The translations under genes were made by a program, and so were the position numbers. This document shows positions 5,667-62,116 of a stretch of DNA of 64,000 nt, piece by piece. Location: positions 134,288-198,287 of the forward strand of contig CAZBFP010000002.1 of NCBI GenBank assembly GCA_964491265.1. The letters are read 5' to 3'. Source of the stretch: an uncultured Leptospirales bacterium. GTDB taxonomy: Bacteria; Spirochaetota; UBA4802; UBA5550. A model generated the notes under the pieces. It worked only from the letters and a program-made list of their open reading frames with translations. It searched no databases and was not told the DNA's origin. The stretch's first letter is position 1. Each line of letters opens with the position of its first letter.

Positions 5667-7158
5667 TCCCCTTACTGCAGCGGGCAATGATTGACTCCAC
5701 AAGCCCCTCTACAGTGAATTCCTCTGCTTCGATATGAGGGGTATGCCCCAGGCCTCTGAGGGTTTCACTTGTTACAGGGCCTATGCTGGCAAGCTCTGCA
5801 TCCGTGCTTTCAATAATGGAAAAGAAGTTTTTTGCTGTTGATGAACTTGTAAATGTTATTATATCAGCATTTTTTACCTCATCTATTGTTCCCTGATCAG
5901 CAGATTCGGGGGGCAGAGCAGTATATATGTGAATTCTTTCAACATCTGCCCCGGAATCTTTGAGCCCCTGTGTCAGCACATGCCTTGCATCAGCAGCGCA
6001 TGGGAGAAGAATTTTTGAGCCTTTAAGGTCCTGTTTCTGCATTTCTTTAAGGAGAGATTCAGCAACAAATTCGGGAGGCACAAGGTCTGCTCTTAAGCCG
6101 TATTTATGGAGCTCATCTGCCGTGGCTCTTCCGATAGCAGCGATTTTTATATCACCCAGTGACCGGGCATCCCTCCCTGTCAAAAAAAGTTCTTCAAAGA
6201 ATATGGATATGGCATTCTGTGATGTAAAAACAAGCCAGCTGTATCGGGAAATATTTTTTAAAGCTTCATGAAGGGGAGACATGTCGCTGCTTTTCTTTAT
6301 ACTGATTACAGGGAGTTCAATTGTTCTTGCTCCAAGAATTGTGAGCATTTTTGAAAGCCTTGATGCCTGTTCTCTGGTGCGGGTGACTACAATTTTTTTC
6401 CCGAAGAGGGGTTGGTTGTCGAACCAGCGGAGCTTATCCCTCAGTGTAACAACCCCGCCCATGATTATTATTGCAGGGGGCTTCATTTTAGCCTTTTCCA
6501 CTTCATCTGCAATTTGTGAAAGTGGCGCAGTGATCACTCTCTGCTCCGGTCTGGTGCCCCAGGATATTATTCCGACAGGGGTTTGGGGATCGAAGTTTTT
6601 ATCTTCAATAAGTTTTCTGCTTATATACTTCAGGTTTTTCATCCCCATGAGAAAGACAAATGTTTTTTCAGGATTGTATTCGGGGAAATTCACATCATCA
6701 TCTTCATCCGCGTCAGCTCTCCGGTGTCCGCTTACAACTTCAAATGCATTGGCAAAATTCCTGTGTGTAAGAGGTATACCTGCGTATGCAGGGGCTGAAT
6801 AAAATGATGAAACTCCGGGAATAATTACAAAAGGGATTCCACGGGCTTCAAGCTCTTCAGCCTCCTCCCCCCCTCTGCCGAAAATAAAAGGGTCACCACC
6901 TTTCAGTCTTACAACAGTTTTCCCCTCCAGGGCTTTTTGAACAATGAGAGTATTTATTTCATCCTGGGTAAGGGTATGGCTGCTCCCCTCTTTCCCCACG
7001 TAAATAATTTCACAATCACGCCCCTGGACAAAGCTTTTATCCGCCAGGTAGTCGTATATAATGCAGTGAGCTTCTTCAAGTGCACGCAAGGCTTTTAAAG
7101 ATATAAGTTCCGGATCGCCCGGGCCTGCTCCAACAAGATAAACCAGTCCTTTTTTCAT
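5659..7158 (-). CDS. cobA: Uroporphyrinogen-III C-methyltransferase / uroporphyrinogen-III synthase fusion (CobA/HemD)
   Basis: N-terminus VYLVGAGPGDPELISLKA is the SUMT tetrapyrrole methylase signature. The C-terminal roughly 250 aa are HemD-like. Overlaps hemC by 4 bp. Confidence 0.8.
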   Translation of the reverse strand: MKKGLVYLVGAGPGDPELISLKALRALEEAHCIIYDYLADKSFVQGRDCEIIYVGKEGSSHTLTQDEINTLIVQKALEGKTVVRLKGGDPFIFGRGGEEAEELEARGIPFVIIPGVSSFYSAPAYAGIPLTHRNFANAFEVVSGHRRADADEDDDVNFPEYNPEKTFVFLMGMKNLKYISRKLIEDKNFDPQTPVGIISWGTRPEQRVITAPLSQIADEVEKAKMKPPAIIIMGGVVTLRDKLRWFDNQPLFGKKIVVTRTREQASRLSKMLTILGARTIELPVISIKKSSDMSPLHEALKNISRYSWLVFTSQNAISIFFEELFLTGRDARSLGDIKIAAIGRATADELHKYGLRADLVPPEFVAESLLKEMQKQDLKGSKILLPCAADARHVLTQGLKDSGADVERIHIYTALPPESADQGTIDEVKNADIITFTSSSTAKNFFSIIESTDAELASIGPVTSETLRGLGHTPHIEAEEFTVEGLVESIIARCSKGTN

Positions 7159-8063
7159 AGGTATTTATCCGCTCCATCTTTTTTCATCATTTCAGCCAGA
7201 TTTTCCCCTATTGTTTCAGGGTCAGAGCCTGTAATTTTTTTTCTTATGAGTCCATCCCCCGCAGGGGAGGCTACTACCCCCTCAAGCGTAATGGAATCAC
7301 CTTCATAAAAAGCAAGTGCTCCAATAGGGACATGGCACCCTCCGCCGAAGTGCTTAAGAAATGTCCTTTCCGCCTTAACCATTTCTGCGGTGGGTGCGTG
7401 AGTAAGCTTATTTACAATATCAAATAATTCAGTGTCATCTGACCTTACCTGAAGACCGAGAGCGCCCTGTGCAGGTGCAGGAATAAAAATATTCTCTGTG
7501 AGAATCTGTGTTTTATATTTACTCAGGTCAAGGTTAACCCTTTCTGCGCCTGCTTTAGCCATTACAATTGCATCGAACTGTTTCTCCTCAAGTTTGCGGA
7601 GCCTGGTATTAACATTGCCGCGGAGAGGTTCGATTGTAAGTGATGAGTCCAGATTTCTAATCTGCGCCATGCGTCTCATTGAACTTGTGCCGATTATAGA
7701 ACCCGTTCTTACATTGAGTCCGTCTTTCTCTTCAAAGGCATGAGGGTGGATTATGAGCATGTCATAGAAGCTTCCCCGCTCAGGGACTGCTGCAATTGTG
7801 AGGCCCGGTACATCTTCAGTGGGGAGGTCTTTCAGTGAATGAACTGCAAGGTCGATTTCATTTCCAAGAAGGGCTTCTTCAATCTCCTTGGTGAAAAATC
7901 CCTTCCCTTCCATCTTGTCAAAGGAGACATTCTGTATTTTATCACCCTGGGTTTTTATTATTATTATTTCAGTATTCTCTTTTCCAAGGAGATCCGCCAC
8001 ATGATTGGCCTGCCAGAGTGCCAGGTCGCTCCCCCTTGTTCCGATACGGATTTTTTTAATCAT
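7155..8063 (-). CDS. hemC: Hydroxymethylbilane synthase (porphobilinogen deaminase)
   Basis: IRIGTRGSDLALWQANHV N-terminus, 302 aa, classic HemC. Confidence 0.85.
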   Translation of the reverse strand: MIKKIRIGTRGSDLALWQANHVADLLGKENTEIIIIKTQGDKIQNVSFDKMEGKGFFTKEIEEALLGNEIDLAVHSLKDLPTEDVPGLTIAAVPERGSFYDMLIIHPHAFEEKDGLNVRTGSIIGTSSMRRMAQIRNLDSSLTIEPLRGNVNTRLRKLEEKQFDAIVMAKAGAERVNLDLSKYKTQILTENIFIPAPAQGALGLQVRSDDTELFDIVNKLTHAPTAEMVKAERTFLKHFGGGCHVPIGALAFYEGDSITLEGVVASPAGDGLIRKKITGSDPETIGENLAEMMKKDGADKYL

Positions 8064-8255
8064 TAAGACCCCATTTTAATCAATTTTTCAGTTGCTCTGT
8101 TAAAGATATGAATAGAGGAAATGCTGTCAATTTATTATTCATTTGACAGTGACCTCCTGTATTTACAAATAAGAAACTCAGCAGAGAAATAAAATTTTTA
8201 TTCCGGAATTATTAGTTTTAATGCTTTTATTCAGAGGAATATAGAGGGGGATATA

Positions 8256-47293: not shown

Positions 47294-50050
47294 TTAAAGA
47301 ATATCCACAACAATCATTGTGGCATCATCCTCAAAACCTTCAGTATTATAACTCCCTGACCATGAGTAAATATCCATAAAGCATTCATCAATAACCCTGG
47401 CCGGAGGGAGATCCCGAAGCTTAAGTAAGAGAGATTCTAATTTCTCCTCTCCATATATTTCACCGGAATTATCCCGCTCCTCAATAAGCCCGTCTGTAAA
47501 GAAGACAAGCCTGTCGCCATTCTCAATAGGGATGGTCACATTGCTGTATCCAGTGTCTTCCATGAGGCCTATAAGGCGCCCCTTTATTTTAAGGTGCACC
47601 AGCTCACCATTTTTTTTCAGCAGGTACATGGGCCAGTGAGCAGCATTAGAGAATGTGATTGTCATTTCATCAAGATCAATGTATGTATAAAATGCAGTAA
47701 TATATCTTCCGGAGAGATTGTGAAAAAGTGCTCTGTTAATCCCCTCAAGGAGCGCCGCGGGATCTTTCAGTCTTCCAGTGGAAGTGGTGAAGGCGATTTT
47801 AATCATAGTGCTTATAAGTGCAGCAGGAACTCCATGTCCGGTTACATCAGCAATAAAAACTCCGATTCTTTTTTCATCAAACTGGTGGAAATCATAAAAG
47901 TCCCCCCCTATCTCCGACATCGGTTCATATTTTGCCTTAATAGACAATCCTTCCAGTTCAGGAAGAGTTTCCGGGAGTATGGAGAGCTGAATATTCCGTG
48001 CAATGTCCAGCTCCTGACGAATTGCAATAAGGGCATTCTGCTCTTCAATCGCTTTTTTAAGCGACACATAATTCCGTACCCTGGCCAGGAGCTGATCTTT
48101 GTCAAAGGGCTTGGTTATATAATCATTGGCGCCCAGGCTCAGCCCTGTAATCATATCCTCGCTGGTGTTCTTGGCTGTAAGAAGAATTATGGGGAGCTGA
48201 TAAAAGCTTATTTTCTCTCTCACCCTTTTGCACACTTCAAAGCCCGACATCTCAGGCATCATCACATCAAGAAGAATAAGGTCAACATCGATTCCCGATT
48301 CAATGAGCTTAAGAGCCTCCATGCCGCTGGATGCGGACTCAACATTATAACCGTCAACTGAAAGGTGATTGATGAGTACCTGCAGATTGATAGGATCATC
48401 ATCAACAATGAGTACCGATCTCGCACCGCTGTTCCCCCGGTTTCTGAAGTTTTCTGTTATGCGGTTTTCATCTTTCACCGGAATAGATGATGACCTGATC
48501 TCCGAGTAACAGCTTTTTGCGGCTCCCCCTGCTGCCGGGAGAGTGAAGAAGAAGCTTGACCCTTTTCCCGGTTCAGATTTCACCCATATTGTTCCGCCAT
48601 GGAGTTCAATAAGATTTTTCGTTATTGATAGTCCCAGACCTGTGCCGCCGTATTTTCTTGAAGCTGAACCGTCGCTCTGTACAAAAGAATCGAATATGAT
48701 CTGCTGCTTTTCCGGGGTAATCCCCTCTCCGGTGTCGCTTATCTCTATAGTATAGTTGTTGCCGCTGATAGAGGAATTAATCCGTACTTCACCTGCGGGG
48801 GTAAACTTTACAGCATTGCCGATAAGATTCAGAAGGATCTGCTGAAGCCTGTTCTCATCAGCATTTACAAAATGTATCCCCGGCTCTATATTGTTGATTA
48901 AACTCAGATTTTTCTGATTAAGGGAACCGGAGATAATGGTAAAGACCATCTCAGTCATTGATCCCAGGTCTACACTTTTTTTATCAAGAATAATATCGCT
49001 GTTTCTTAGTAATGAGTAATCAAGTATATCATCAACAAGGGTTGCGAGCCTTCTGCTGCTTTTAAGTATCATTGAAAGGAGGTGTTTAATGTTGTCATTA
49101 AGCTCACCGCTGATCCCGTCCATTAGTGACTGGGTAAGTCCGATTATTCCATGTATGGGGGTTTTAAGTTCATGTGTGGTGTTTGCAAGGAATTCATCTT
49201 TAAGGCGGTCCATTTTCAGTAAGTCAATATTTGCTTGTTCGAGCTCACTTATTTTCTGATGAATCATAGCTGACATTTTATTGAATGTCGATGCAAGGTG
49301 ACCAATCTCGTCTTTGTTCTTTATTGTAACAGTATGGAGGTAATTCCCCTGCTCAATCTGACTGGCCCCTTCAGTGAGTTTTACTATCGGTCTTGAAAGG
49401 TATACTCCGAAAATTACAGCCATAAAAATAACAGTAATTAGTAAAACAACTGAAGCAATATTTACATATTTTTTGATCTCATAAATTGTAGAGAGTGCCA
49501 CCTTCTTTTCCATAATTGTTCGTGTCATGCATATGGGGGAATTATTCTGCATTGTGCCTATTGAGATAAATTCAATATAATCAGTATCAGTAAAAAACTC
49601 CCTGTATCCGCCGGCAAAGGATTTAATTTTTTCAATTTCATCAGGGGGGATCCTGTCATTGAATCTTGTAAACCCTGATATTTTATTATCGCTTATTATA
49701 GAAGCAAGAATAGTTCCGTTTAATGAAGGGCGTGATGAAAGGAGTACAGCGTCAGCATATACAAGTCCCTTCTTCTGAAGCGGCTCAAGCATATTTATCA
49801 TATCCTTAACATCAACCATCGATGCCCGCACATTGCCGCCATTCATAAAGAGAATGTTAACAACTGACTTGGAGAAGACGCTGGTATTTATACTGTTCTG
49901 GGCGATTATATAATCAAGCGCCTCTTTCTCCATTTTATTGATAACAAGTGTAGAGAATGGTACAACAAGAAGAGATGTGAGGATGATAAACATTATAATA
50001 ATTTTATTTTTTATGCTCATAATATTAACTCTATCTCTGCAGCGCTTCAA
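47294..50050 (-). CDS. Hybrid sensor: membrane sensor domain, HisKA, HATPase_c, REC, PP2C (SpoIIE-type) phosphatase
   Basis: HisKA (FLANTTHELKTPIHGIIGL), HATPase (GGTGLGLSITKNLIELHGG), REC (VLIVDDDPINL...LLDVMMPEMSGFE), PP2C (GGDFYDF...IADVTGHGVPAAL). The start is possibly MSIKNK at 50020. Confidence 0.8.
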   Translation of the reverse strand: MKRCRDRVNIMSIKNKIIIMFIILTSLLVVPFSTLVINKMEKEALDYIIAQNSINTSVFSKSVVNILFMNGGNVRASMVDVKDMINMLEPLQKKGLVYADAVLLSSRPSLNGTILASIISDNKISGFTRFNDRIPPDEIEKIKSFAGGYREFFTDTDYIEFISIGTMQNNSPICMTRTIMEKKVALSTIYEIKKYVNIASVVLLITVIFMAVIFGVYLSRPIVKLTEGASQIEQGNYLHTVTIKNKDEIGHLASTFNKMSAMIHQKISELEQANIDLLKMDRLKDEFLANTTHELKTPIHGIIGLTQSLMDGISGELNDNIKHLLSMILKSSRRLATLVDDILDYSLLRNSDIILDKKSVDLGSMTEMVFTIISGSLNQKNLSLINNIEPGIHFVNADENRLQQILLNLIGNAVKFTPAGEVRINSSISGNNYTIEISDTGEGITPEKQQIIFDSFVQSDGSASRKYGGTGLGLSITKNLIELHGGTIWVKSEPGKGSSFFFTLPAAGGAAKSCYSEIRSSSIPVKDENRITENFRNRGNSGARSVLIVDDDPINLQVLINHLSVDGYNVESASSGMEALKLIESGIDVDLILLDVMMPEMSGFEVCKRVREKISFYQLPIILLTAKNTSEDMITGLSLGANDYITKPFDKDQLLARVRNYVSLKKAIEEQNALIAIRQELDIARNIQLSILPETLPELEGLSIKAKYEPMSEIGGDFYDFHQFDEKRIGVFIADVTGHGVPAALISTMIKIAFTTSTGRLKDPAALLEGINRALFHNLSGRYITAFYTYIDLDEMTITFSNAAHWPMYLLKKNGELVHLKIKGRLIGLMEDTGYSNVTIPIENGDRLVFFTDGLIEERDNSGEIYGEEKLESLLLKLRDLPPARVIDECFMDIYSWSGSYNTEGFEDDATMIVVDIL

Positions 50051-51402: not shown

Positions 51403-52857
51403 ATGAATAAAAGACCTTTTCAATCTATTATTATCAGAGCATTCATTATCTGTATACTCTTAAATGCTTTACCTGCAGCAGCAGGGACAGCTGCTGTTTA
51501 CCCGGCCTATACGGGTAATCCGGTATTGGACCATATTCTCAGTTCTGCTGAGTATAAATTAAATGAAATGTTCCATAAATCGGGGCGATATTATCCTGCA
51601 GATTATCACAGTAAAAAAGCCTCCCTTGAAAAAGCCGCTGGTGAAAACAGTGAAATCTTTTATAAAAATGCCGCGCGATTAATTCATGCTGATCTTGCTG
51701 TAATGCTGAGTATCGATTCTCAAAGGGGTGTTTTTGCATTAAAAATGACCTGCATTGCTTTTACATCTGCCGGAGAAAAAACCTTGTTCGATTCACTTAT
51801 TACTTCATCAATACCTGACAATATCCCCCTTAAGGGTGTGCTCCGGTTTTCTCATTTTTTTAATGACCTTAAACTGGAAGCAGAGGTGATCCGCATAGAT
51901 GATACCGGGGGGAGGGTGATTGATGCGGGGCAGTGGAACAGCCTTGAAGCAGGGGAGTATAAAACCTCGGCTGGAATCGTAAATGTAACAGAGCTTTCCA
52001 GGTATAATTCTCTACTTGAAGGATCAGATTTATCTGAAGGGGAGAGTATTATTTTTGATATTTATCCCGATTTGACAGATTATTTCAGGGAAACAGAGAG
52101 GGTGATTAAGCGGAATATTGTAAGGAAATATGGAACAGATGAAGTTCTAAACAGTAAGGAGGGTGCGGCAAAGGAGATGGTATATGGAACCTGCATTATA
52201 AATCCGGGGGCCAACCTTTTTCTCCCCGGATACGGTTCTTTCCTCTCTGTTGAATATATGGGGATAGAAAAAAGTACCCCGGATCGTACAGGGATGATCA
52301 TTGCCACAGCTATTATTGCAGGACACTTTATGCTCCCCGGCATGTTGACCGGTTTTAAAACAAATTTTTTCCCCTGGGTTAAAGACAGCGATAAAACTTC
52401 AGAAATGCAGAGGCTTCATATTTTTCTCTGGGCATCACTCCCTCTTACCTACTCGGCATCATTCTACAATCAGCTTGCATGGCAGTATCACAGCAAAGAT
52501 CTCCTCCCACCGCTTTTTATTGATAGTGATAATACAGCAGCTGTGATATCACTTTTTGTTCCAGGGGGCGGGCTTTTTTATAAAGGGCAGAGAGGGGCGG
52601 GTTTTGCTTTCTATGCTGCGGAAATGTCACTCCTCGGTTACGGGATATATACCGGTGAGAGTGAAAAACGCAGGGCTGCTTTTATCGGATTGGCAGCAGT
52701 AAAGGTTATTGATATTGCTGCCGCATATTTTGTTCCACCAGGTTACAGGGTCTTCAGGGATGAAATTTCCGGTTCCGCGCCATCATTCTCCATGGGGATA
52801 CTCCCCGGAATTGAAGGTGACGGGGAATTTACATTTTCAGTTACACAATCTTTCTAA
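51403..52857 (+). CDS. Hypothetical secreted/membrane protein
   Basis: Signal peptide and C-terminal hydrophobic segments. 484 aa, no known domain. Confidence 0.45.
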   Translation: MNKRPFQSIIIRAFIICILLNALPAAAGTAAVYPAYTGNPVLDHILSSAEYKLNEMFHKSGRYYPADYHSKKASLEKAAGENSEIFYKNAARLIHADLAVMLSIDSQRGVFALKMTCIAFTSAGEKTLFDSLITSSIPDNIPLKGVLRFSHFFNDLKLEAEVIRIDDTGGRVIDAGQWNSLEAGEYKTSAGIVNVTELSRYNSLLEGSDLSEGESIIFDIYPDLTDYFRETERVIKRNIVRKYGTDEVLNSKEGAAKEMVYGTCIINPGANLFLPGYGSFLSVEYMGIEKSTPDRTGMIIATAIIAGHFMLPGMLTGFKTNFFPWVKDSDKTSEMQRLHIFLWASLPLTYSASFYNQLAWQYHSKDLLPPLFIDSDNTAAVISLFVPGGGLFYKGQRGAGFAFYAAEMSLLGYGIYTGESEKRRAAFIGLAAVKVIDIAAAYFVPPGYRVFRDEISGSAPSFSMGILPGIEGDGEFTFSVTQSF

Positions 52858-53326: not shown

Positions 53327-54430
53327 TTACACAATCTTTTTAACTTTTTTTCTTGAGAAAAAGAAGAAGGCTAAAAATAAAACATAAGAGGCGATTGCCG
53401 GTATTACTGCAGCAGGGTAGAATTTCGCAATTGGCGCAAGAAGGAGTATAACAAACCAGTGATAGTAGATCGCCTTACCTGTGTTAAGTGCAATAGGGAA
53501 ATCGTTCCATCTTATTATCACCATCATACCTGTAAGATTCCAGCCGTATAACGAATAAAAGGCGTGCATCCTTAATATTACCTTCCCGTAGTATTCATAA
53601 AAAGCGAATTTAGTAAGTACAATATATATTATTCCAGTGACCGCTGAGATTAAAAGAAAGTACATCCCTGATACAAGGAAATGCTTCTGCTGTATACGTG
53701 TGCCGAATCTGAAAAAAAAGAAGAATATAAGTAATACAGTGATGAAGAGGAGTGCGGATATTATGACTTCGCCGATAAAAACTTGAAAAATAATAAAAAG
53801 AAAGAATACTATAACACCTCCGCATATGAGCCAGAAAAAGATATGCTCTGCAATATATATAAGGGAGGATTTCTTCTCTTCAATTATTCCGAAAATTATA
53901 GACATGGTGATGAGTGATACAGGGAACGAAAAACCGAGAAAAAAGACATTTAACGTAAGTTTTTCGAAATGGAAAAGGTTAAAGTGTACTTCGTTTAATA
54001 TAACAAAGGATGATAGGAGCAGGGCGATTGAGAGACAGAGGAGCGAGGCCTGATGAAATTTTTCTGAAGCGCTCCATTTTGCCCTGAAAAAACTGTAAGG
54101 GAAAAATGGAAATTTTTTAATACGGTACGATTCCACAATAAATGCAAGCACTACAGCAATAGCTGCTGCAGGGTAGTAAATTTCAAAAAATGCCAGCATG
54201 GCGTATATAATGCTCAGGAAAAAGAATATTAATGTTTTAAACGACGGTACGCTTCTCCCCTCAGTAAGATAAAGGATTGTAAATCCGCCGCTTGTAAGGT
54301 TGAAAAGGAATATATGGAGCCTTTCAAAGTTTTTATCCATATATATGTCCAGGTATCCAAACATGAATGCCAGGGACATTGTGGTAAAAAGCAGGTATCT
54401 TGAAAGGTATCTTATATTCATTGTAAATAT
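53327..54430 (-). CDS. Polytopic membrane protein, unknown function
   Basis: About 10 TM segments. The ORF-track start at 54505 (MPPLGDRGK) is a read-through of the MITE inverted repeat. The likely start is MIFTMNIRY at about 54430. Confidence 0.5.
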   Translation of the reverse strand: MFTMNIRYLSRYLLFTTMSLAFMFGYLDIYMDKNFERLHIFLFNLTSGGFTILYLTEGRSVPSFKTLIFFFLSIIYAMLAFFEIYYPAAAIAVVLAFIVESYRIKKFPFFPYSFFRAKWSASEKFHQASLLCLSIALLLSSFVILNEVHFNLFHFEKLTLNVFFLGFSFPVSLITMSIIFGIIEEKKSSLIYIAEHIFFWLICGGVIVFFLFIIFQVFIGEVIISALLFITVLLIFFFFFRFGTRIQQKHFLVSGMYFLLISAVTGIIYIVLTKFAFYEYYGKVILRMHAFYSLYGWNLTGMMVIIRWNDFPIALNTGKAIYYHWFVILLLAPIAKFYPAAVIPAIASYVLFLAFFFFSRKKVKKIV

Positions 54431-54480
54431 CATTCTTTCCGGATTATCGGGGGATAAAAGCAGATCTTTACAAATCCTTT

Positions 54481-54683
54481 TCCCCCTGTCCCCCAAAGGG
54501 GGCACGAGTTAATATATTTTTACTCTGATAATTTAATTTTTTATCATTCCTATAACAACTTCAATATTGTTTAATACATCTTCATCTTTAATATGTAATA
54601 TTTGGATTCTAATACTTTGAGAAAATTCATCTACTTACACAAGTATTCTTTTTACCTGCCCCCTTTGGGGGACAGGGGGCAGA
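54481..54683. mobile_element. MITE-like element, family 1 (about 203 bp)
   Basis: TIRs TCCCCCTGTCCCCCAAAGGGGGCACGAG (left) and CTGCCCCCTTTGGGGGACAGGGGGCAG (right). The core is similar to the 56622-56819 copy. Confidence 0.65.
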
Positions 54684-56368: not shown

Positions 56369-56402
56369 GTTAATGCCCCTTGAAATCTTTTATTGAGTAA
56401 AA

Positions 56403-56524
56403 GCAGTGTTAATTCCTTAACTTTTTTTTGAAATAAAATGCTCACATATCCCCGCCGCCGAAGGCGGCGGGGATATGGAAAACATCATTATTGCACTAAA
56501 AAATATCTTTAGGAATAATTACTG
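56403..56524 (+). repeat. Promoter-like repeat family 3, copy B, with GC mini-hairpin insertion
   Basis: Same ends as copy A (GTGTTAATTCCTTAACTTTT...AGGAATAATTACTG), with ATATCCCCGCCGCCGAAGGCGGCGGGGATAT (56447-56477) inserted. Confidence 0.55.
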
Positions 56525-56621
56525 GAGTAAAAGTATAATTCATTGCCGGTGAAGGCAATCAAATTTTTTTGAGCCATGAACCTTATTGCAGCATCTACCC
56601 CGGGGTTAATTTCTTCGCTTT

Positions 56622-56819
56622 TCCCCCTGTCTACCAAAGGGGGCACGATTTATCTATTATCACTCTGAAAATATAATTGTTACTTCTTCGATAACTATTC
56701 CTTTTATATTGTTCCGCCAATCTTTTACAAACTCAACAATATAAAGGATTTTTTAATACTTTGATTCATCAACTTGCTCAAGTTTTTATTTTACGTGCCC
56801 CCTTTGGGGGACAGGGGGC
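56622..56819. mobile_element. MITE-like element, family 1 (about 198 bp)
   Basis: TIRs TCCCCCTGTCTACCAAAGGGGGCACGA (left) and CGTGCCCCCTTTGGGGGACAGGGGGC (right). Core similar to the other two copies. Confidence 0.65.
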
Positions 56820-57085
56820 CAATACACCGATTACAGAAAGTTACTAAATTATTTTTTACGAAATATCAACTATCGTATTGGATGATTTTGCCTTTTAGAT
56901 AGAAATGAGTGGGGGCATACTAATCATTATTGCATCCCCCCCATAATATTATGCTTCAGAAAGGGTATGGTTCAGGCCGATTTGTAATCAATAGACCTTT
57001 TCTATATTTATATATATTGCAGCAGAGCGTTAGAATTTAAGTGAGATCCGATTTTCTTATCTGTGCTGCCATGGGTGATTGAAGA

Positions 57086-57961
57086 ATGAGGCTTACAGTT
57101 CCGGATATGTTCCGCGATCCCTACACATTTGAAGGGATAATATCAAAATATGAAGAGATTCTTCATGATGTCTCCGAAATTGATATGTCCAGGGTAAGCT
57201 TTATTGAACCTTATTCCATGGTTTCATTTCTCCTTATGGGGAGAAGCTGTTTCAGAAAGCGGGGCGAGAAGATAAAGCTTATTAATCTCCCCATACACAT
57301 ACATCAGTATCTGGCAAGGATGGATTTTTTTAAAACAGAGGTTTTTTCTGTGCCCGGTATTCTTGATGAGGGCCTTGTTTTAAAGAGGAGCAGTGAAAGC
57401 AGCAGGCTTATAGAGATAACCGAAATTCCTAATAAGGAGAGACAGGGCGCGAATGTTATTTCCTCTGTTATTGCCCGGTTCAGGAAAAGAGGATCTATGA
57501 TCCTTAAATACTGGATGGACGATACTGTTACCGATTACTTTGTTACAGTTATATCTGAGCTGTGTCAGAATATATTTGAACATAGTCTTGATACAGGGTT
57601 TGTTTCCATGCAGACTTACCGAAGCGGTAAGGAGAATGTTGTGAGGCTGGTAATTTCCGATTCAGGTGTGGGGATCCATGGCAGTTTTGAAGCAGGGAGA
57701 GGGATTGATTATAAGTCGCCGGCGGATCTTATTGAAAAGGCCCTTACCCTGCCGGTTTCCAGTAAAAGGGATTTCGGTTACGGATTATGTCAGGTTAATT
57801 CAATTGTAGAAAAGCTTAAAGGGACAATTCTTCTAAGGTCCAATGACGCGTCAGTTGCAGCCCTTTATAATAAAAAGGGGGGCTCATCAAAGCATATGTT
57901 TCAGAGAGATGGACTCCCCCCTTTTCAAGGGACACAGATTACTATTTCATTAACAGCATAG
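57086..57961 (+). CDS. STAS-like N-domain fused to GHKL (histidine-kinase-like / RsbW-type) ATPase
   Basis: The N-terminus IDMSRVSFIEPYSMVSFLL...KIKLINLPIHIHQYLARMDFF follows the SpoIIAA/STAS pattern. The C-terminus has the N-box ELCQNIFEH, G1 box DSGVG and G2 box GYGL. Confidence 0.6.
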   Translation: MRLTVPDMFRDPYTFEGIISKYEEILHDVSEIDMSRVSFIEPYSMVSFLLMGRSCFRKRGEKIKLINLPIHIHQYLARMDFFKTEVFSVPGILDEGLVLKRSSESSRLIEITEIPNKERQGANVISSVIARFRKRGSMILKYWMDDTVTDYFVTVISELCQNIFEHSLDTGFVSMQTYRSGKENVVRLVISDSGVGIHGSFEAGRGIDYKSPADLIEKALTLPVSSKRDFGYGLCQVNSIVEKLKGTILLRSNDASVAALYNKKGGSSKHMFQRDGLPPFQGTQITISLTA

Positions 57962-57970
57962 GGCATAATT

Positions 57971-58513
57971 ATGGTTATAAATGTTTTTAAATCTGCAAAG
58001 GATGCAAAGGTAAAAGTGCCCGATCTCATAACAAGACCTGTGGGGCGCCTGATGTTTACCAGGGCTATTGAGAAGCTGGGAGATATTTCTGAAGAGGAGA
58101 TTCTTCTTATCGATTTTGCCGGAATTAAGGTAACAGATTCATCCTTTATTGATGAATTTATTGTTAAGCTTATTAAGCATTCAGCAGAAAAGAATTATTA
58201 TGTTAAATTGACTAATATATCTGATATTTCTGAAATTAATATTGACTCAGTCTTTAATTCATATTCTAATTATAATGATTCAAGAATTGCTGTAAGCAGG
58301 GCTGAGCTGGGTAGAAATAACAGGTATTATATCGGTCCTCTCAATGAGCATGAGAGTGATATTATTGATTACTTCAGGATAAACCGTTCAGCCAGCTTTG
58401 AGGATATTTCCAGATTTACAGGGCTGGATATACCTGTAGTAAAAACAATAATGGAAGAGCTTCTCAAATTAAGACTTGTTAGAAAGAATAAAGATGACTT
58501 TACATCGGTATAA
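57971..58513 (+). CDS. DUF4325 (STAS-like) domain protein with C-terminal winged-helix
   Basis: LLIDFAGIKVTDSSFIDEFIVKLI matches the DUF4325 core. The C-terminal IIDYFRINRSASFEDISRFTGLDIPVVKTIMEELLKLRLV is wHTH-like. Confidence 0.5.
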   Translation: MVINVFKSAKDAKVKVPDLITRPVGRLMFTRAIEKLGDISEEEILLIDFAGIKVTDSSFIDEFIVKLIKHSAEKNYYVKLTNISDISEINIDSVFNSYSNYNDSRIAVSRAELGRNNRYYIGPLNEHESDIIDYFRINRSASFEDISRFTGLDIPVVKTIMEELLKLRLVRKNKDDFTSV

Positions 58514-58534
58514 TAAAAAATTATAAGAGCTGAT

Positions 58535-59005
58535 ATGCCTCCAAGAAAAAAGAAAGAGTATGTAAAAAAGGATGATAGTCTCTTTGGTCTTCTTGTTTCA
58601 TATAAGGCTAATAATACCTATATAAAGGTTATGTCAGATGAGGAGAGCCAGACAGCGGCTGTTGTGATCAGCAGAAGCCCTGTTAACTGGTCAAAATTTG
58701 AGGATGCTGAGTATGGGGCCTATCGGCCCATGAGAAGACTCGATCTCGGGGTGGAGAGGCTTTTTGTCAAGTACCTGCTTCCGGAGCAGCTGATAAAAAT
58801 TCTCGGCCCGGCAATAGGTATTTCTCTCCCTGCCAACAGGATCGAAATTGATGACAGGCTTAATGACAGAGGGTACTATGTGATTAAGACCGGGAGCCGC
58901 TATCTTGTGAGAGTAATAAGCGGTGTAAAAAAAATTATAAATCTTACGCCTCAAAAGAAGTATGAGATTCTGGAAAAATGCATTGCTGAAGAACAGGAAA
59001 ATTAG
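58535..59005 (+). CDS. Hypothetical protein (156 aa)
   Basis: Intact ORF, 21-bp gap from the preceding gene. No recognisable domain. Confidence 0.4.
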   Translation: MPPRKKKEYVKKDDSLFGLLVSYKANNTYIKVMSDEESQTAAVVISRSPVNWSKFEDAEYGAYRPMRRLDLGVERLFVKYLLPEQLIKILGPAIGISLPANRIEIDDRLNDRGYYVIKTGSRYLVRVISGVKKIINLTPQKKYEILEKCIAEEQEN

Positions 59006-60082
59006 ATGAGTAAACAGTATGAAGCAATAGGCGAAAAAGCCAGAAAAATTGAAACTGCCCTTAAGTTTACTGACGGGGACATGGAGAAGGCCAAGCTTAT
59101 GGCTTCGGGCAAGCTTCATGACGTTGTTGTTATTAAGGGTAAATTTGTTGATCCTCAGAAGAATATTTCCGGAATTTTTCTCGCTTTTGTAAATATTGTA
59201 AATGAATATATTTCCGCCATAAAAACAGTGGAATCCAGTACAACCGGGGTTTTTACTATTATCAGGGTTTTTGACGACTGGAAACATCTCTACAACAGTC
59301 TTATGGCATATGAAAGCGGCCCTGATGCAGTAGATTCATCTAAGCTGAATGCAGATCTGCTCGATGCATTTATAAGAACAGATATATTCCCCGATGTCCA
59401 GAGTATGAATCTCGATTATCTTGCTGTGTCAATACAGGATATGGTTAAAACAAGCCTGGAATCGGAAAAGATCAAATGTCAGATTGAACTTGAAAAGACC
59501 AGCTCCATGGATGTGGAGCTTGCCGGAATAGATGTGATGGTCCCTTCATCTGAAGAGGATGAGGAAGAGGAGCAGAAATATGGGGAGAAGCCCCCTGAAA
59601 AGAAAGGCCCTCAGAGTGAATTTGAAAAGAAACTTGATGAAATCGAATCAAAGGCTTCATTTATAGTTGAAGGGAAATGTGTTCTTTCCCCTGTAAAAGG
59701 GAGATATATAAATGAAATTGCTGACGGGGAGAAGATGTTTGTGATTCTTCCAGGTAAGGATGAACTTTCCGAAAAAATAATTGATGCTTATAAGGCAAGG
59801 GATCATGAAGGGCGCCCTCTCCCTGTTGCAGGACGGGTAATTGAAAAAGTCCATATTGACGGCGGCGGACTGATATTATATGTTCTTGTTGCAAAGGGGA
59901 TTTATGCAAAAATCGTTGAAGAGGAAAATGTTAAAGTACAGACCGATTTAACTAAGAAAAAGGGGAGTGAAAGAAAAACTGAATCAGAAGAGAAAGATGC
60001 ACGCCCCATGATGAATATTTTTGTGTATATTATTTTTATCCTTATGATTATAGGCCTTATTGTCATTATAACAATGATGTAA
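59006..60082 (+). CDS. Hypothetical tail-anchored membrane protein with UBA-like N-terminus and acidic linker
   Basis: Start abuts the previous stop. N-terminal ALKFTDGDMEKAKLMAS resembles the UBA-like helix of EF-Ts/NAC. EEDEEEEQ acidic stretch. C-terminal TM IFVYIIFILMIIGLIVIITMM. Confidence 0.45.
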   Translation: MSKQYEAIGEKARKIETALKFTDGDMEKAKLMASGKLHDVVVIKGKFVDPQKNISGIFLAFVNIVNEYISAIKTVESSTTGVFTIIRVFDDWKHLYNSLMAYESGPDAVDSSKLNADLLDAFIRTDIFPDVQSMNLDYLAVSIQDMVKTSLESEKIKCQIELEKTSSMDVELAGIDVMVPSSEEDEEEEQKYGEKPPEKKGPQSEFEKKLDEIESKASFIVEGKCVLSPVKGRYINEIADGEKMFVILPGKDELSEKIIDAYKARDHEGRPLPVAGRVIEKVHIDGGGLILYVLVAKGIYAKIVEEENVKVQTDLTKKKGSERKTESEEKDARPMMNIFVYIIFILMIIGLIVIITMM

Positions 60083-60100
60083 TCAGGCGGTTCTGCTGAT

Positions 60101-60979
60101 ATGTTATCCGGCCGCTTAACCCTCCTTTTATTCATAATTCTCACTGCCTTACCCTTTACCTCCCTATTCCCCCAGATGCCTGACTGGACCTTCTTTAAGG
60201 ATAGAGAGGGGAATCAATACTATTATGACCGTGCCTTTAAAATAAGAATTACGGATGAACCTGATTTTAATTACCCCCCTGTTTCCGGAAAGGGGATAGA
60301 GTATTATTATAACTCAGGCCTTGAATACCTGGACAGGAGAGAGGTTGTTAAGGGTTTATACTTTTTTAAATCAATACTTGCGCTAAAGCAGCAGGATAAC
60401 CGTTTAAGGAAAATTCAGATAAATACAGTGGATCAGATCAGTTCACTGGAAAAGAGACATGGAACAAGGATGGAGGCTTTTGACAGGGAGAGTACCCTTC
60501 TGATACTGAAGGAGGGGGGATCTTTCAGGCTTATCAATGAAAAGCTCTTCTATGCTTTGACCCTTCCTGTTCCTGCGCGTCCATGGATCATCAGAAAGGG
60601 GTGGAAGTATTCAGATAAGGGTTACGGTCTGCAGTTTGGAGTTAACATGGACGGGAGTGGGAAGAAGGGCTACGATTTTGTGGCAGGGGTGGAAACACGG
60701 ATTCTCCCATTTGCAGCTGATACAGCAGATCAGGCTGAAGAGATATGGGTTAGAGATCTGGGGTCTGATGCATTTTCAAGAGAGCTTATAGAGAAGGGTG
60801 CAGAAAAAAAGATATATTTATACAAATATCCGGGTGACTCACCCTTCAGGGGGTATGAAGGGATTTATGTAAACAGGAATACGATTCATCTTGTACGGAT
60901 AATGTATCATGAAAATATGCATTCCTCAGTTGAGCAGATGGTTCAGGATATGATGAGCAGTTTTACTCTTGTAAGATGA
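60101..60979 (+). CDS. Secreted hypothetical protein (292 aa)
   Basis: Signal peptide LLLFIILTALPFTSLF. No recognisable domain. Last gene of the 5-gene plus-strand cluster. Confidence 0.45.
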   Translation: MLSGRLTLLLFIILTALPFTSLFPQMPDWTFFKDREGNQYYYDRAFKIRITDEPDFNYPPVSGKGIEYYYNSGLEYLDRREVVKGLYFFKSILALKQQDNRLRKIQINTVDQISSLEKRHGTRMEAFDRESTLLILKEGGSFRLINEKLFYALTLPVPARPWIIRKGWKYSDKGYGLQFGVNMDGSGKKGYDFVAGVETRILPFAADTADQAEEIWVRDLGSDAFSRELIEKGAEKKIYLYKYPGDSPFRGYEGIYVNRNTIHLVRIMYHENMHSSVEQMVQDMMSSFTLVR

Positions 60980-60980
60980 A

Positions 60981-61439
60981 TCAGTCTTTATATACAAGAG
61001 CGGTTTCGCTGCAGTTTTCTCTATCTTTGCATTTGGCACAGTCTTTCCATATTTTTTCCGGGAACTCCTCCCGTGATACTTCAAAAAAACCGTAATGCTT
61101 AAAAAAATCGGGTCTGTAGGTTAAAACGAATATTCTTGCTGAGGATTTTTCTCTTATACGATTGATAATAGCCTTGAGGAGCCTGCCGCCGATTCCCATA
61201 CTTCTGAATTCATTATGAACAGCAAGTGATCTTATCTCTTTAAGGTTCCCGTCGTAGTCATAAAATGTGGCAACACCTTTAAGTTCACCAGATATTTCTG
61301 CAACTATAAATGTGCCGAGATTTGAGCGTATATCCTCCCTCTCCCTTTCAAGGATTACACCAAGGAGGGCATAGTGTTTCAGAAGGGAGAAAATATCTTC
61401 AATATCCTTCTCTTCAGCTTCCCTTATTTTTACTTCCAT
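60981..61439 (-). CDS. GNAT-family N-acetyltransferase
   Basis: 152 aa. HNEFRSMGIGGRLLKAI (motif A) and a C-terminal FKHYGFFEV-type motif B. Confidence 0.7.
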   Translation of the reverse strand: MEVKIREAEEKDIEDIFSLLKHYALLGVILEREREDIRSNLGTFIVAEISGELKGVATFYDYDGNLKEIRSLAVHNEFRSMGIGGRLLKAIINRIREKSSARIFVLTYRPDFFKHYGFFEVSREEFPEKIWKDCAKCKDRENCSETALVYKD

Positions 61440-61453
61440 GACTCCTGCCGGAA

Positions 61454-62116
61454 TTAATTTCGTTTAATTATCTGGGCATTAGCCGGAAAGGGTTCCTCTT
61501 TGTAAAGAGAAATTTCTGTGAGAGCTTTGCGTGCATCACTTTCAGTTTTATAGGGGCCTGTGAATAGTCTGTAATTACCTTCATTTTTTGAAACAATAAC
61601 AGTGTGTCCTTTGGTGCTTAAATACCGGGCAACAGGTTTGAACTCAGATTCGTTAAAATCCTTTCCCACCAGGATTACAAATGGGAATTCATTTTTAGGG
61701 TATACTGCGTCAGCCGGTTTTGCTGTGCCGGTGCCTGCCTCCTTAACAATATCGCTTAGCCTGGTGCTTATATTTGTGACAGCATTGTAGGTGTTTTCAT
61801 CAACGATTTGTCTTTCAGCCCCGCCGGCGAACTTAATCCCTATAACCATGCCTGTGGTGAAAGAAATTATTATAAGGGCTGTTATGAAAGACAAAAGACG
61901 AACGGCTTTTTTCCGTGTACGTTCCTGCTCAATTTCATGAACTTTCGAGGTTTTAGAGAAAAATTCCGTGTCAACCTTTTCATATTGAGGAGCCATACAG
62001 CGTATGTTGCGGCCTTCGTAAAAATCCATGTTTTGCATATCAAACCCGTTATAATTAAAGAATAGAATATTAGAATGCGGGCAAACCCTGCATTTATATA
62101 TTCTATTTCGGCACAT
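61454..62116 (-). CDS. SPOR-domain membrane protein
   Basis: One TM (LLSFITALIIISF) and a C-terminal SPOR-like fold (FVILVGKDFNESEFKPVARYLSTKGHTVIVSKNEGNYRLFTGPYKTESDARKAL). The start is probably internal. Confidence 0.6.
   Translation of the reverse strand: MCRNRIYKCRVCPHSNILFFNYNGFDMQNMDFYEGRNIRCMAPQYEKVDTEFFSKTSKVHEIEQERTRKKAVRLLSFITALIIISFTTGMVIGIKFAGGAERQIVDENTYNAVTNISTRLSDIVKEAGTGTAKPADAVYPKNEFPFVILVGKDFNESEFKPVARYLSTKGHTVIVSKNEGNYRLFTGPYKTESDARKALTEISLYKEEPFPANAQIIKRN

Follow-up and report, generated by a model that had tools for sequence, protein, structure and literature searches.

The described systems closest to the locus considered here are CapK/CapS, named for 'controller of adjacent pathways', and VapKSC (Chambers, Rani, Min, Villa & Corbett, EMBO J 2026; PMC13373217). 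CapK is an (HTH-)STAS-GHKL kinase, HTH being a helix-turn-helix domain, and CapS is a repressor that combines a STAS domain with a winged helix-turn-helix (wHTH) domain and is always encoded directly after capK (PMC13373217). The cargo genes of capKS are Bub, CBASS, Thoeris, CarolAnn or YegP (PMC13373217). Single-stranded DNA activates CapK, which phosphorylates S54, an absolutely conserved serine in helix 2 of the CapS STAS domain; the phosphorylated CapS dimer then dissociates, and capS and the downstream operon are de-repressed (PMC13373217). The subject of this report is a five-gene operon in a stretch of 64,000 nucleotides from an uncultured Leptospirales bacterium (contig CAZBFP010000002.1, positions 134,288 to 198,287; the whole stretch is termed the window below). 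By profile and motif comparison, genes 1 and 2 of this operon are homologous to this characterised kinase-substrate switch, while genes 3-5 encode proteins of no recognised family.

Further features of the two described systems bear on the comparison. CapK has an active-site asparagine, N218, and binds single-stranded DNA through an aromatic residue, W68 (F54 in VapK), and a basic groove; deletion of its HTH has no effect (PMC13373217). CapS binds two palindromic promoters, of which the first lies between capK and capS and the second follows capS, and its DNA-reading helix is the region of N145 (PMC13373217). The pair works without a sigma factor or a dedicated phosphatase, and 348 of 443 capKS pairs stand ahead of known or predicted immune operons, although according to the authors the cargo could also be general stress-response genes (PMC13373217). 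VapK consists of STAS and GHKL domains only. In VapS, which has a short C-terminal inhibitory helix, a phospho-switch at a Ser or Thr frees the VapC toxin, and vapKSC protects against a phage (PMC13373217).

The five genes of the window (Table 1) lie on the same strand with gaps of 9, 21, 0 and 18 bp, exactly as stated in the first-pass annotation, which had been made from the DNA letters alone, and positive GC skew is uniform over the block. Gene 4 occurs in exact copies on 20 metagenomic contigs with identical neighbours. The homologue clusters of gene 1 (n = 277) and gene 4 (n = 117) all belong to Spirochaetota or Leptospirales metagenome-assembled genomes, and the 102 homologue clusters of gene 3 are of the same lineage throughout. 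When the gene 1 alignment was scanned against one genome per GTDB species, 80 loci were returned and 89 were confirmed, every one of them from Spirochaetota. The gene content of these loci was established by tblastn with the five window proteins. Order and strand of genes 1-2-3-4 are kept in essentially all sufficiently long loci, across about 80 species, and gene 5 was found in 64 loci. Median intergenic distances are 10 (10.5 for genes 1-2, in 82 loci), 44, 3 (genes 3-4, in 78 loci) and 7 bp, and the spacing of genes 2 and 3 reaches 44-484 bp in 41 of 79 relatives. The five genes are therefore a real operon, whose gene order is shared by at least 80 uncultured spirochaete species, and the possibility raised at first pass, that they might never be co-located in other genomes, does not hold.

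Four departures from this arrangement were seen. In one locus (L064, 951-3217), genes 1, 2 and 5 are kept, genes 3 and 4 are both missing, and genes 2 and 5 are about 45 bp apart. This joint loss suggests that genes 3 and 4 are one functional unit; gene 3 is translationally coupled to gene 4. Gene 5 was not detected by tblastn in the most divergent clade (L081-L089), and in about 10 loci inserts of 360-570 bp separate genes 4 and 5; the insert of L008 contains a small HTH_8 gene in opposite orientation.

Gene 1 matches the Pfam model HATPase_c above its gathering score (E=4.9e-7) and, weakly, HATPase_c_2 (E=0.03) and STAS_2 (E=0.08). Its STAS-like domain covers approximately residues 1-115 and is followed by a minimal GHKL domain at approximately residues 145-291. 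The N (E158/N162/H166), G1 (D192xG194xG196) and G2 (G231xG233) boxes are invariant across orthologues, which bears out the earlier description of a STAS-GHKL fusion with all three boxes. The N-box asparagine, N162 here and residue 218 in E. roggenkampii CapK, does not vary among 16 orthologues and three distant homologues on mobile elements. The C-terminus coincides with the end of the GHKL core, and a transducer domain is absent. A minimal GHKL domain without a transducer is the layout of kinases, such as RsbW and the CA domain of histidine kinases, unlike that of MutL, MORC and Hsp90, and a MORC/MutL/Hsp90-type ATPase is ruled out for gene 1 by the lack of a transducer domain past the GHKL core.

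The STAS-like domain of gene 1 contains an invariant FIEPYS motif (residues 39-44), in which the position matching the phospho-serine of SpoIIAA is occupied by an invariant proline, P42, that also occurs in the three distant mobile homologues. Because of this invariant proline, the domain is predicted to be neither a SpoIIAA-type phospho-acceptor nor a second classical substrate. An hhalign comparison of gene 1 with SpoIIAB gives E=7e-4, and the SpoIIAA and SpoIIAB registers agree with the proline, in alignments that are weak and rest on unverified reference sequences. The partner-switching scheme of the first-pass annotation thus stands as far as a phosphorylation-controlled switch is concerned, given the CapK/CapS match described below, but not where it made the STAS domain of gene 1 a classical substrate.

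Outside the spirochaetes, the best match to gene 1 is a kinase on plasmid2 of Nostoc linckia (33% identity, residues 3-289, E=2e-27). In addition, gene 1 matches phrog_3364 over its full length (E=5e-20) and, locally, positions 33-244 of the 1750-position PADLOC DrmA model (E=2.5e-5). In a full-length alignment, gene 1 and its Nostoc, phage and plasmid homologues share a D33/S35/P42 STAS motif and the N, G1 and G2 boxes.

Gene 2 starts with a STAS-like (DUF4325) domain and ends with a winged helix at approximately residues 120-176. The Pfam match to DUF4325 falls just under the cut-off (E=2.8e-4) and those to wHTH models, HTH_24 among them, are weak, while the profile match to CapS confirms the two-domain architecture assigned at first pass. 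When the orthologue profile of gene 2 was compared with the PDB, it matched CapS 9z72/9z73 over residues 24-176, which span both domains (E=1.2e-4), CapS 9z71 (E=4.6e-4) and Escherichia VapS 9z7o (E=6e-4). R22, G25, F49, D56, S58, F59, D61, E62 and G122 are invariant in 35 of 35 sequences, the Nostoc homologue included, and S58 aligns with the DSSF motif of 9z71. Since position 57 varies (S/T/P/A/V) and the Nostoc homologue reads DVSF, S58 is the residue of gene 2 that corresponds to the absolutely conserved serine of the family (S54 in CapS), and it is the predicted phospho-acceptor. Literature searches found no functional study of DUF4325 or 'STAS-like' proteins.

Homologous pairs also occur on mobile elements. 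On plasmid2 of Nostoc linckia NIES-25 (L090, AP018224.1 88099-102929), the kinase is followed by a gene 2 homologue (E=4.6e-15), and the pair is followed by a 377-aa protein, a 752-aa Prok-E2_A + ThiF + Prok-JAB fusion, a 262-aa protein and an S1/P1 nuclease. Judged by these domains, the surroundings are Bub-type and ubiquitination-like, as were those that led to the discovery of capKS. Pairs with weaker homology are found on the Pseudomonas plasmid pBYT1-1, where they are annotated as 'ATP-binding protein' and 'STAS-like domain-containing protein', in Marinitoga phage MPV1, with a repressor/methylase on one side and an integrase on the other, and, by annotation, in Francisella phage KIRK.

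On balance, genes 1 and 2 are probably a CapK/CapS-type switch that has become fixed in the core chromosome of a Leptospirales-like lineage and controls a three-gene envelope module, genes 3-5; this reading is held with moderate confidence. In the proposed mechanism, gene 1 would take up an intracellular stress signal between its STAS-like domain and its GHKL domain, and the bound signal would render the kinase active. By analogy with CapK and VapK, this ligand could conceivably be single-stranded DNA arising from DNA damage. Active gene 1 would then phosphorylate Ser58 in STAS helix 2 of gene 2, and this modification would alter the oligomeric state or the partner binding of gene 2. The altered gene 2 protein would in turn switch on the proteins of genes 3, 4 and 5, either by transcriptional de-repression or by releasing them from direct inhibition. 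From the homology of both proteins and the conservation of their catalytic and acceptor residues we infer that the phosphorylation of S58 by gene 1 toggles the state of gene 2 and, hence, the activity or expression of genes 3-5.

Several observations weigh against this reading. Gene 1 lacks an N-terminal HTH, its open reading frame (ORF) starting at the STAS-like domain, and no residue of it could be equated with the DNA-stacking W68 of CapK, for which conserved aromatics (Y13, F15, F39 and Y43) are mere candidates, as is a basic FRKR patch (residues 132-135) for the basic groove. Across 82 orthologues, the putative recognition helix of gene 2 (residues 151-166) varies in sequence and carries a mean net charge of -1.9, making it acidic, and it is without the motif (Q/N)(N/S)AS.RLK(K/R)L, of charge +2 or +3, that occurs in both crystallised CapS proteins and in the Nostoc homologue. 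The 9-bp and 21-bp gaps of the window leave no room for two intergenic promoters such as those of CapS. Moreover, a census of exact 5-mer inverted repeats upstream of gene 1, between genes 1 and 2 and between genes 2 and 3 revealed no family-wide palindrome (at most 9 of about 80 loci). Finally, no spirochaete is found among the datasets of the CapK/CapS paper (PMC13373217), and published capKS pairs are mobile and stand ahead of immune operons, whereas the window operon is vertically inherited, belongs to the core and has cargo that matches no PADLOC model.

The character of the recognition helix bears directly on how the switch might deliver its output. Only the wing of the gene 2 wHTH is conserved and basic (R168, R/K171). 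The DNA-reading surface of the domain seems to have been lost, and DNA binding as its output is doubtful because the helix is acidic and variable. The first-pass proposal that the wHTH is the output of the switch was thus right about the presence of the domain and doubtful about its role. Within the overall model, a transcriptional and a protein-level output are roughly equally likely. The transcriptional variant is favoured by the retention of the wHTH and by CapS homology over both domains, the protein-level variant by the acidic recognition helix and the promoter-less junctions.

Taken as a full account of its own, the protein-level alternative holds that the operon works as VapKSC does. 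Unphosphorylated gene 2 would bind gene 3 and/or the cytosolic domains of gene 4 and keep them inactive, Ser58 phosphorylation by gene 1 would free them to act at the membrane, and the wHTH would be a protein-binding module. The basic/polar DNA-reading motif that is conserved in CapS gives way here to a variable acidic helix, the short gaps point to one transcript that lacks internal promoters in the window, and VapS offers a precedent in which the same STAS phospho-switch frees VapC. In the Leptospira-like relatives described below, the gene 4 homologue has a different small protein coupled to it upstream, which suggests that gene 4 proteins have a cytosolic partner. However, the wHTH fold is retained and its wing remains conserved and basic, the wider spacing between genes 2 and 3 in 41 of 79 relatives leaves room for a promoter, and gene 2 aligns with CapS over both domains, while VapS has only a short C-terminal helix. 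This alternative is possible, though rather less than probable.

The three cargo genes have no counterpart of known function. No PADLOC, Pfam or PHROG family above cut-off and no PIN domain was found for genes 3-5, and Pfam, profile and Foldseek searches recognised no nuclease, pore, NADase or protease effector domain. For gene 3, Pfam and PDB profile searches returned noise only; its AlphaFold model is confident (mean predicted local distance difference test score, pLDDT, 87; predicted template modelling score, pTM, 0.79), and the best Foldseek match to it in the PDB has E=0.09 and a TM-score below 0.35. The AlphaFold model of gene 4 (pLDDT 87) comprises an N-domain (residues 1-175), a disordered acidic linker (180-203), a beta-rich C-domain (205-312) and a transmembrane helix (333-357). 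Foldseek found no match to it in the PDB or BFVD, and PDB and Pfam profile searches with gene 4 gave noise only. The tail anchor and the acidic linker expected at first pass are both present in this model, while the supposed UBA-like N-terminus amounts to two helices and is unconfirmed.

Gene 5 starts with a hydrophobic leader read from the sequence, in keeping with the earlier call of a secreted protein, and matches no family in Pfam or other family searches. It has a WW-like motif, QMPDW..DREGN.YY, at residues 25-55. The WW model matches 7 of 33 gene 5 orthologues at E<0.1 and the PDB profile search finds NEDD4 WW domains at E of about 0.01, which is a weak signal. Gene 5 is the fastest-evolving member of the operon, with orthologue identities of 24-58%, and it is absent or displaced in some lineages.

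Genes 3-5 were described at first pass as lacking recognisable domains. This is upheld, in that genes 3 and 5 belong to no family, gene 4 has a sub-threshold match to a single one, and no well-characterised housekeeping family was found for any of the three. Structure prediction, which had been suggested for these genes, gave confident models without a PDB match for genes 3 and 4. From sequence features and models, the gene 3 protein is predicted to be cytosolic, that of gene 4 to be cytosolic and tail-anchored in the inner membrane, and that of gene 5 to lie beyond the inner membrane. Together they would form a lineage-specific, membrane-associated module in which the modelled folds of genes 3 and 4 are without PDB counterpart. 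Because this cargo is placed at the membrane and periplasm, and because a conserved neighbour has a SPOR domain, an envelope- or division-related stress response is the most parsimonious guess as to its role.

The single family match of gene 4 links it to Leptospira. It matches the NCBIfam model LIC10486_fam (NF047678) with E=4.7e-16, at 58.8 bits against a cut-off of 500, and residues 11-354 align with positions 12-362 of 363. The gene 4 orthologues of one divergent locus (L086) reach 41 bits, and a Leptospira-like representative (P0346), which the gene 4 profile finds with E=1e-24, reaches 309 bits. An exhaustive profile search delimited a superfamily of 546 representative clusters, 299 of them below 1e-10, and DUF4899 (PF16240) is borderline in gene 4 homologues through the C-domain. 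By these scores, gene 4 is a distant relative of the LIC10486 family rather than a member, within a LIC10486/DUF4899 superfamily. LIC10486 itself is a seroreactive hypothetical protein of Leptospira interrogans (PMC3798601).

Like gene 4, the LIC10486 family has two domains and a C-terminal transmembrane segment. Unlike the window operon, the Leptospira-like loci contain no gene 1, 2, 3 or 5 within 7 kb of the gene 4 homologue, which rules out the same operon at the Leptospira LIC10486 locus. Instead, translational coupling in these loci (L093-L106) joins the gene 4 homologue to another protein of about 235 aa, which is encoded upstream of it, between thrC and leuS. Since they carry only the gene 4 homologue, the association of gene 4 with the kinase switch is specific to the lineage of the window. 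The 235-aa protein has invariant KELIVNSTKAAIKR and TEGAGMGIT motifs, which resemble GHKL N and G2 boxes. A GHKL relationship to gene 1 or gene 3 was considered for it and is unsupported by hhalign and PDB profile comparisons; one of two members has a sub-threshold HATPase_c match.

The position of the operon in the chromosome is conserved. Its flanks are housekeeping-type genes, namely an M18 aminopeptidase upstream and, downstream and convergent, a GNAT acetyltransferase, a SPOR-domain protein and SerC. The GNAT gene is directly downstream in 55 of 82 loci and the SPOR gene in 58 of 82, while the upstream flank is common only to the closest 15 loci. The identity of gene 1 to its orthologues co-varies with that of SPOR (Spearman rho 0.73) and GNAT (0.52), and also with that of gene 2 (0.85), gene 4 (0.82) and gene 5 (0.72). 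Because gene 1 co-varies in this way with the neighbours and with the other operon genes, inheritance of the operon is vertical and syntenic, at a core chromosomal position. The first-pass annotation had placed the locus in a rearrangement hotspot where defence modules accumulate. That view is not supported, as gene order is conserved and the neighbours co-diverge.

The same pattern bears on the question of whether the operon serves in anti-phage defence. In that case the sensor would detect infection-derived single-stranded DNA and turn on a membrane-acting abortive-infection effector made of genes 3-5. The immune setting of most published capKS pairs and the phage protection by vapKSC speak for this, as do the homologous pairs in prophage accessory regions and on conjugative plasmids (MPV1, KIRK, pBYT1-1 and Nostoc plasmid2) and the matches of gene 1 to phrog_3364 and to the N-terminus of PADLOC DrmA. 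A tail-anchored membrane protein is, moreover, a common effector design. However, defence systems are usually patchy and mobile, whereas this operon holds one conserved chromosomal position in about 80 species, among housekeeping-type, co-diverging neighbours. Genes 2-5 match no model in PADLOC-DB 2.0, the cargo has no recognisable effector domain, and Pfam analysis of the flanking genes found no further defence genes beside the operon. The CapK/CapS paper also allows for cargo in general stress responses (PMC13373217). A defence role of the cargo is possible but disfavoured on account of the inheritance pattern, and as an explanation of the whole operon it is unlikely.

A classical RsbW/RsbV-type partner switch, with a sigma factor or other target elsewhere and reset by the HK-REC-PP2C hybrid 7 kb upstream, is very improbable. 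The SpoIIAB alignment (with its unverified sequence), the weak HATPase_c_2 match, the STAS-like domains of both proteins and the synteny of the hybrid in the closest dozen or so relatives would fit it. However, the operon and its vicinity encode no sigma factor, the STAS-like domain within the kinase has the invariant proline at its phospho-site, and the substrate includes a wHTH. Moreover, CapK/CapS and VapK/VapS, the nearest homologues to have been characterised, need neither a sigma factor nor a dedicated phosphatase, and in farther relatives the synteny with PP2C is gone while the five genes stay together. The absence of a sigma factor, already remarked at first pass, agrees with the CapK/CapS-type switch favoured here. 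The hybrid reported at that stage does exist at its place in the window (Table 1); its synteny with the operon extends to close relatives only, and a switch of the CapK/CapS kind would need no dedicated phosphatase.

Upstream of gene 1 there is a gap of 717 bp (56369-57085). The repeats and hairpins earlier reported in it were recovered, namely both hairpins and inverted copies of a 25-nt G/C-rich repeat, GTGCCCCCTTTGGGGGACAGGGGGC. This repeat has five copies in the window where none is expected, and two of them form the ends of an insert that resembles a miniature inverted-repeat transposable element (MITE). The MITE-like insert is context and lies outside the operon. All six contigs of the species have this gap at 717 bp, whereas it measures 236-609 bp in relatives that share the M18 neighbour, and the repeats have widened it with the gene arrangement unchanged. 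Closer to gene 1, a non-coding block is kept in close relatives whose gene 1 is about 85% identical, 90-140 bp upstream of that gene. In the relatives it takes the form of the AT palindrome followed by T(C/T)AGAA(A/T)-N13-19-CCGA(T/A). Among the 82 loci, 8 have this bipartite motif ahead of gene 1; they belong to three sub-lineages, and the background rate of the motif is 0.003 per 300 nt. The block may be a promoter or operator. An Rfam search of the gap gave noise only.

Table 1. Coordinates of the operon, its surroundings in the window and the coupled genes of Leptospira-like loci.
Feature	Position	Strand	Size	Remarks
Gene 1	57086-57961	+	291 aa	CapK-like kinase (by homology)
Gene 2	57971-58513	+	180 aa	CapS-like protein (by homology)
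Gene 3	58535-59005	+	156 aa	predicted cytosolic protein
Gene 4	59006-60082	+	358 aa	predicted tail-anchored membrane protein
Gene 5	60101-60979	+	292 aa	predicted exported or periplasmic protein
GNAT acetyltransferase	60981-61439	-		Pfam
SPOR-domain protein	61454-62116	-		Pfam
HAMP-HisKA-HATPase-REC-SpoIIE(PP2C) hybrid	47294-50050	-		7 kb upstream of operon
Upstream ORF	51403-52857	+	484 aa	no Pfam match
Upstream ORF	53327-54505	-	392 aa	polytopic membrane protein; no Pfam match
Perfect hairpin	56445-56477			15-bp stem
Terminator-like hairpin	56542-56559
MITE-like insert	56622-56819		~198 bp	ends are inverted copies of the 25-nt repeat (56622-56646, 56795-56819)
Copies of GTGCCCCCTTTGGGGGACAGGGGGC	1102-1126, 54481-54505, 54656-54680, 56622-56646, 56795-56819		25 nt
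Conserved non-coding block	56946-57000	+		candidate promoter or operator; AT palindrome ATAATATTAT, then TCAGAAA-N-CCGAT
235-aa protein and gene 4 homologue	L101:6288-6992, 6992-8125			Leptospira-like locus
235-aa protein and gene 4 homologue	L095:6224-6961, 7001-8080			Leptospira-like locus

Some further observations concern the surroundings. The copies of GTGCCCCCTTTGGGGGACAGGGGGC occur in inverted pairs, like MITE termini, and one copy supplies the apparent start of the 392-aa upstream ORF. This ORF and the 484-aa one adjoin the M18 peptidase gene in 11 related loci. In three loci of the clade without gene 5 (L081, L086 and L087), the gene directly after gene 4 is convergent and encodes a large membrane protein that ends in a PP2C/SpoIIE-like domain (for example L086:10606-12591, minus strand). 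PP2C-like genes are also found within 7 kb of the operon in several other loci, a count for which there is no background rate.

The novelty claimed for this system at first pass is therefore divided, as the cargo is new and the switch is of the CapK/CapS kind published in 2026. What is new is the unrecognised cargo, the fixation in spirochaete core genomes and the signs of a changed role of the wHTH. CapK/CapS has so far been known only as a mobile regulator that controls anti-phage operons in cultivated bacteria, and here it is found fixed in the core genome of a large uncultured clade. If the switch still senses DNA damage, the operon would reveal a new stress-response output at the spirochaete envelope and would offer an initial functional approach to the LIC10486/DUF4899 superfamily, including a seroreactive antigen of Leptospira interrogans. 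It is a tentative suggestion, and unlikely to hold in every part, that a CapK/CapS-type switch was domesticated as a core function of a spirochaete order, that it controls a previously unknown envelope module with folds absent from the PDB, possibly as a DNA-damage-triggered checkpoint of division or envelope, and that its wHTH was repurposed to protein binding. The locus is, in any case, a natural test of the modularity of CapK/CapS and VapK/VapS, and of the boundary between immunity and general stress response.

Compared with the known systems, genes 1 and 2 resemble SpoIIAB/SpoIIAA and RsbW/RsbV in pairing a minimal GHKL serine kinase with a STAS-fold substrate, and gene 2 resembles SpoIIAA and RsbV in having its predicted phospho-acceptor region at the start of STAS helix 2. 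Those modules, however, include a sigma factor and a PP2C phosphatase, neither of which is encoded by this operon. Unlike SpoIIAB and RsbW, gene 1 is fused to a STAS-like domain of its own that appears non-phosphorylatable, and unlike SpoIIAA and RsbV, gene 2 is fused to a wHTH. VapKSC is similar in that its kinase has STAS and GHKL domains only, the STAS switch has a conserved Ser/Thr and the genes form a tight single operon, and the output here may likewise be exerted at the protein level. In VapKSC, though, the third gene encodes the PIN nuclease VapC, which has no equivalent here, and VapS ends in a short helix, in contrast to the complete wHTH, about 60 aa long, of gene 2. CapK/CapS shares with genes 1 and 2 the order of a STAS+GHKL kinase gene, a STAS+wHTH gene directly after it and then a cargo operon, together with the conserved N-box asparagine (N162) and STAS helix-2 serine (S58). 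It differs in that an N-terminal HTH belongs to CapK and not to gene 1, and in that the cargo of CapK/CapS is Bub, CBASS, Thoeris or YegP, whereas here it consists of three uncharacterised proteins of the putative envelope module.

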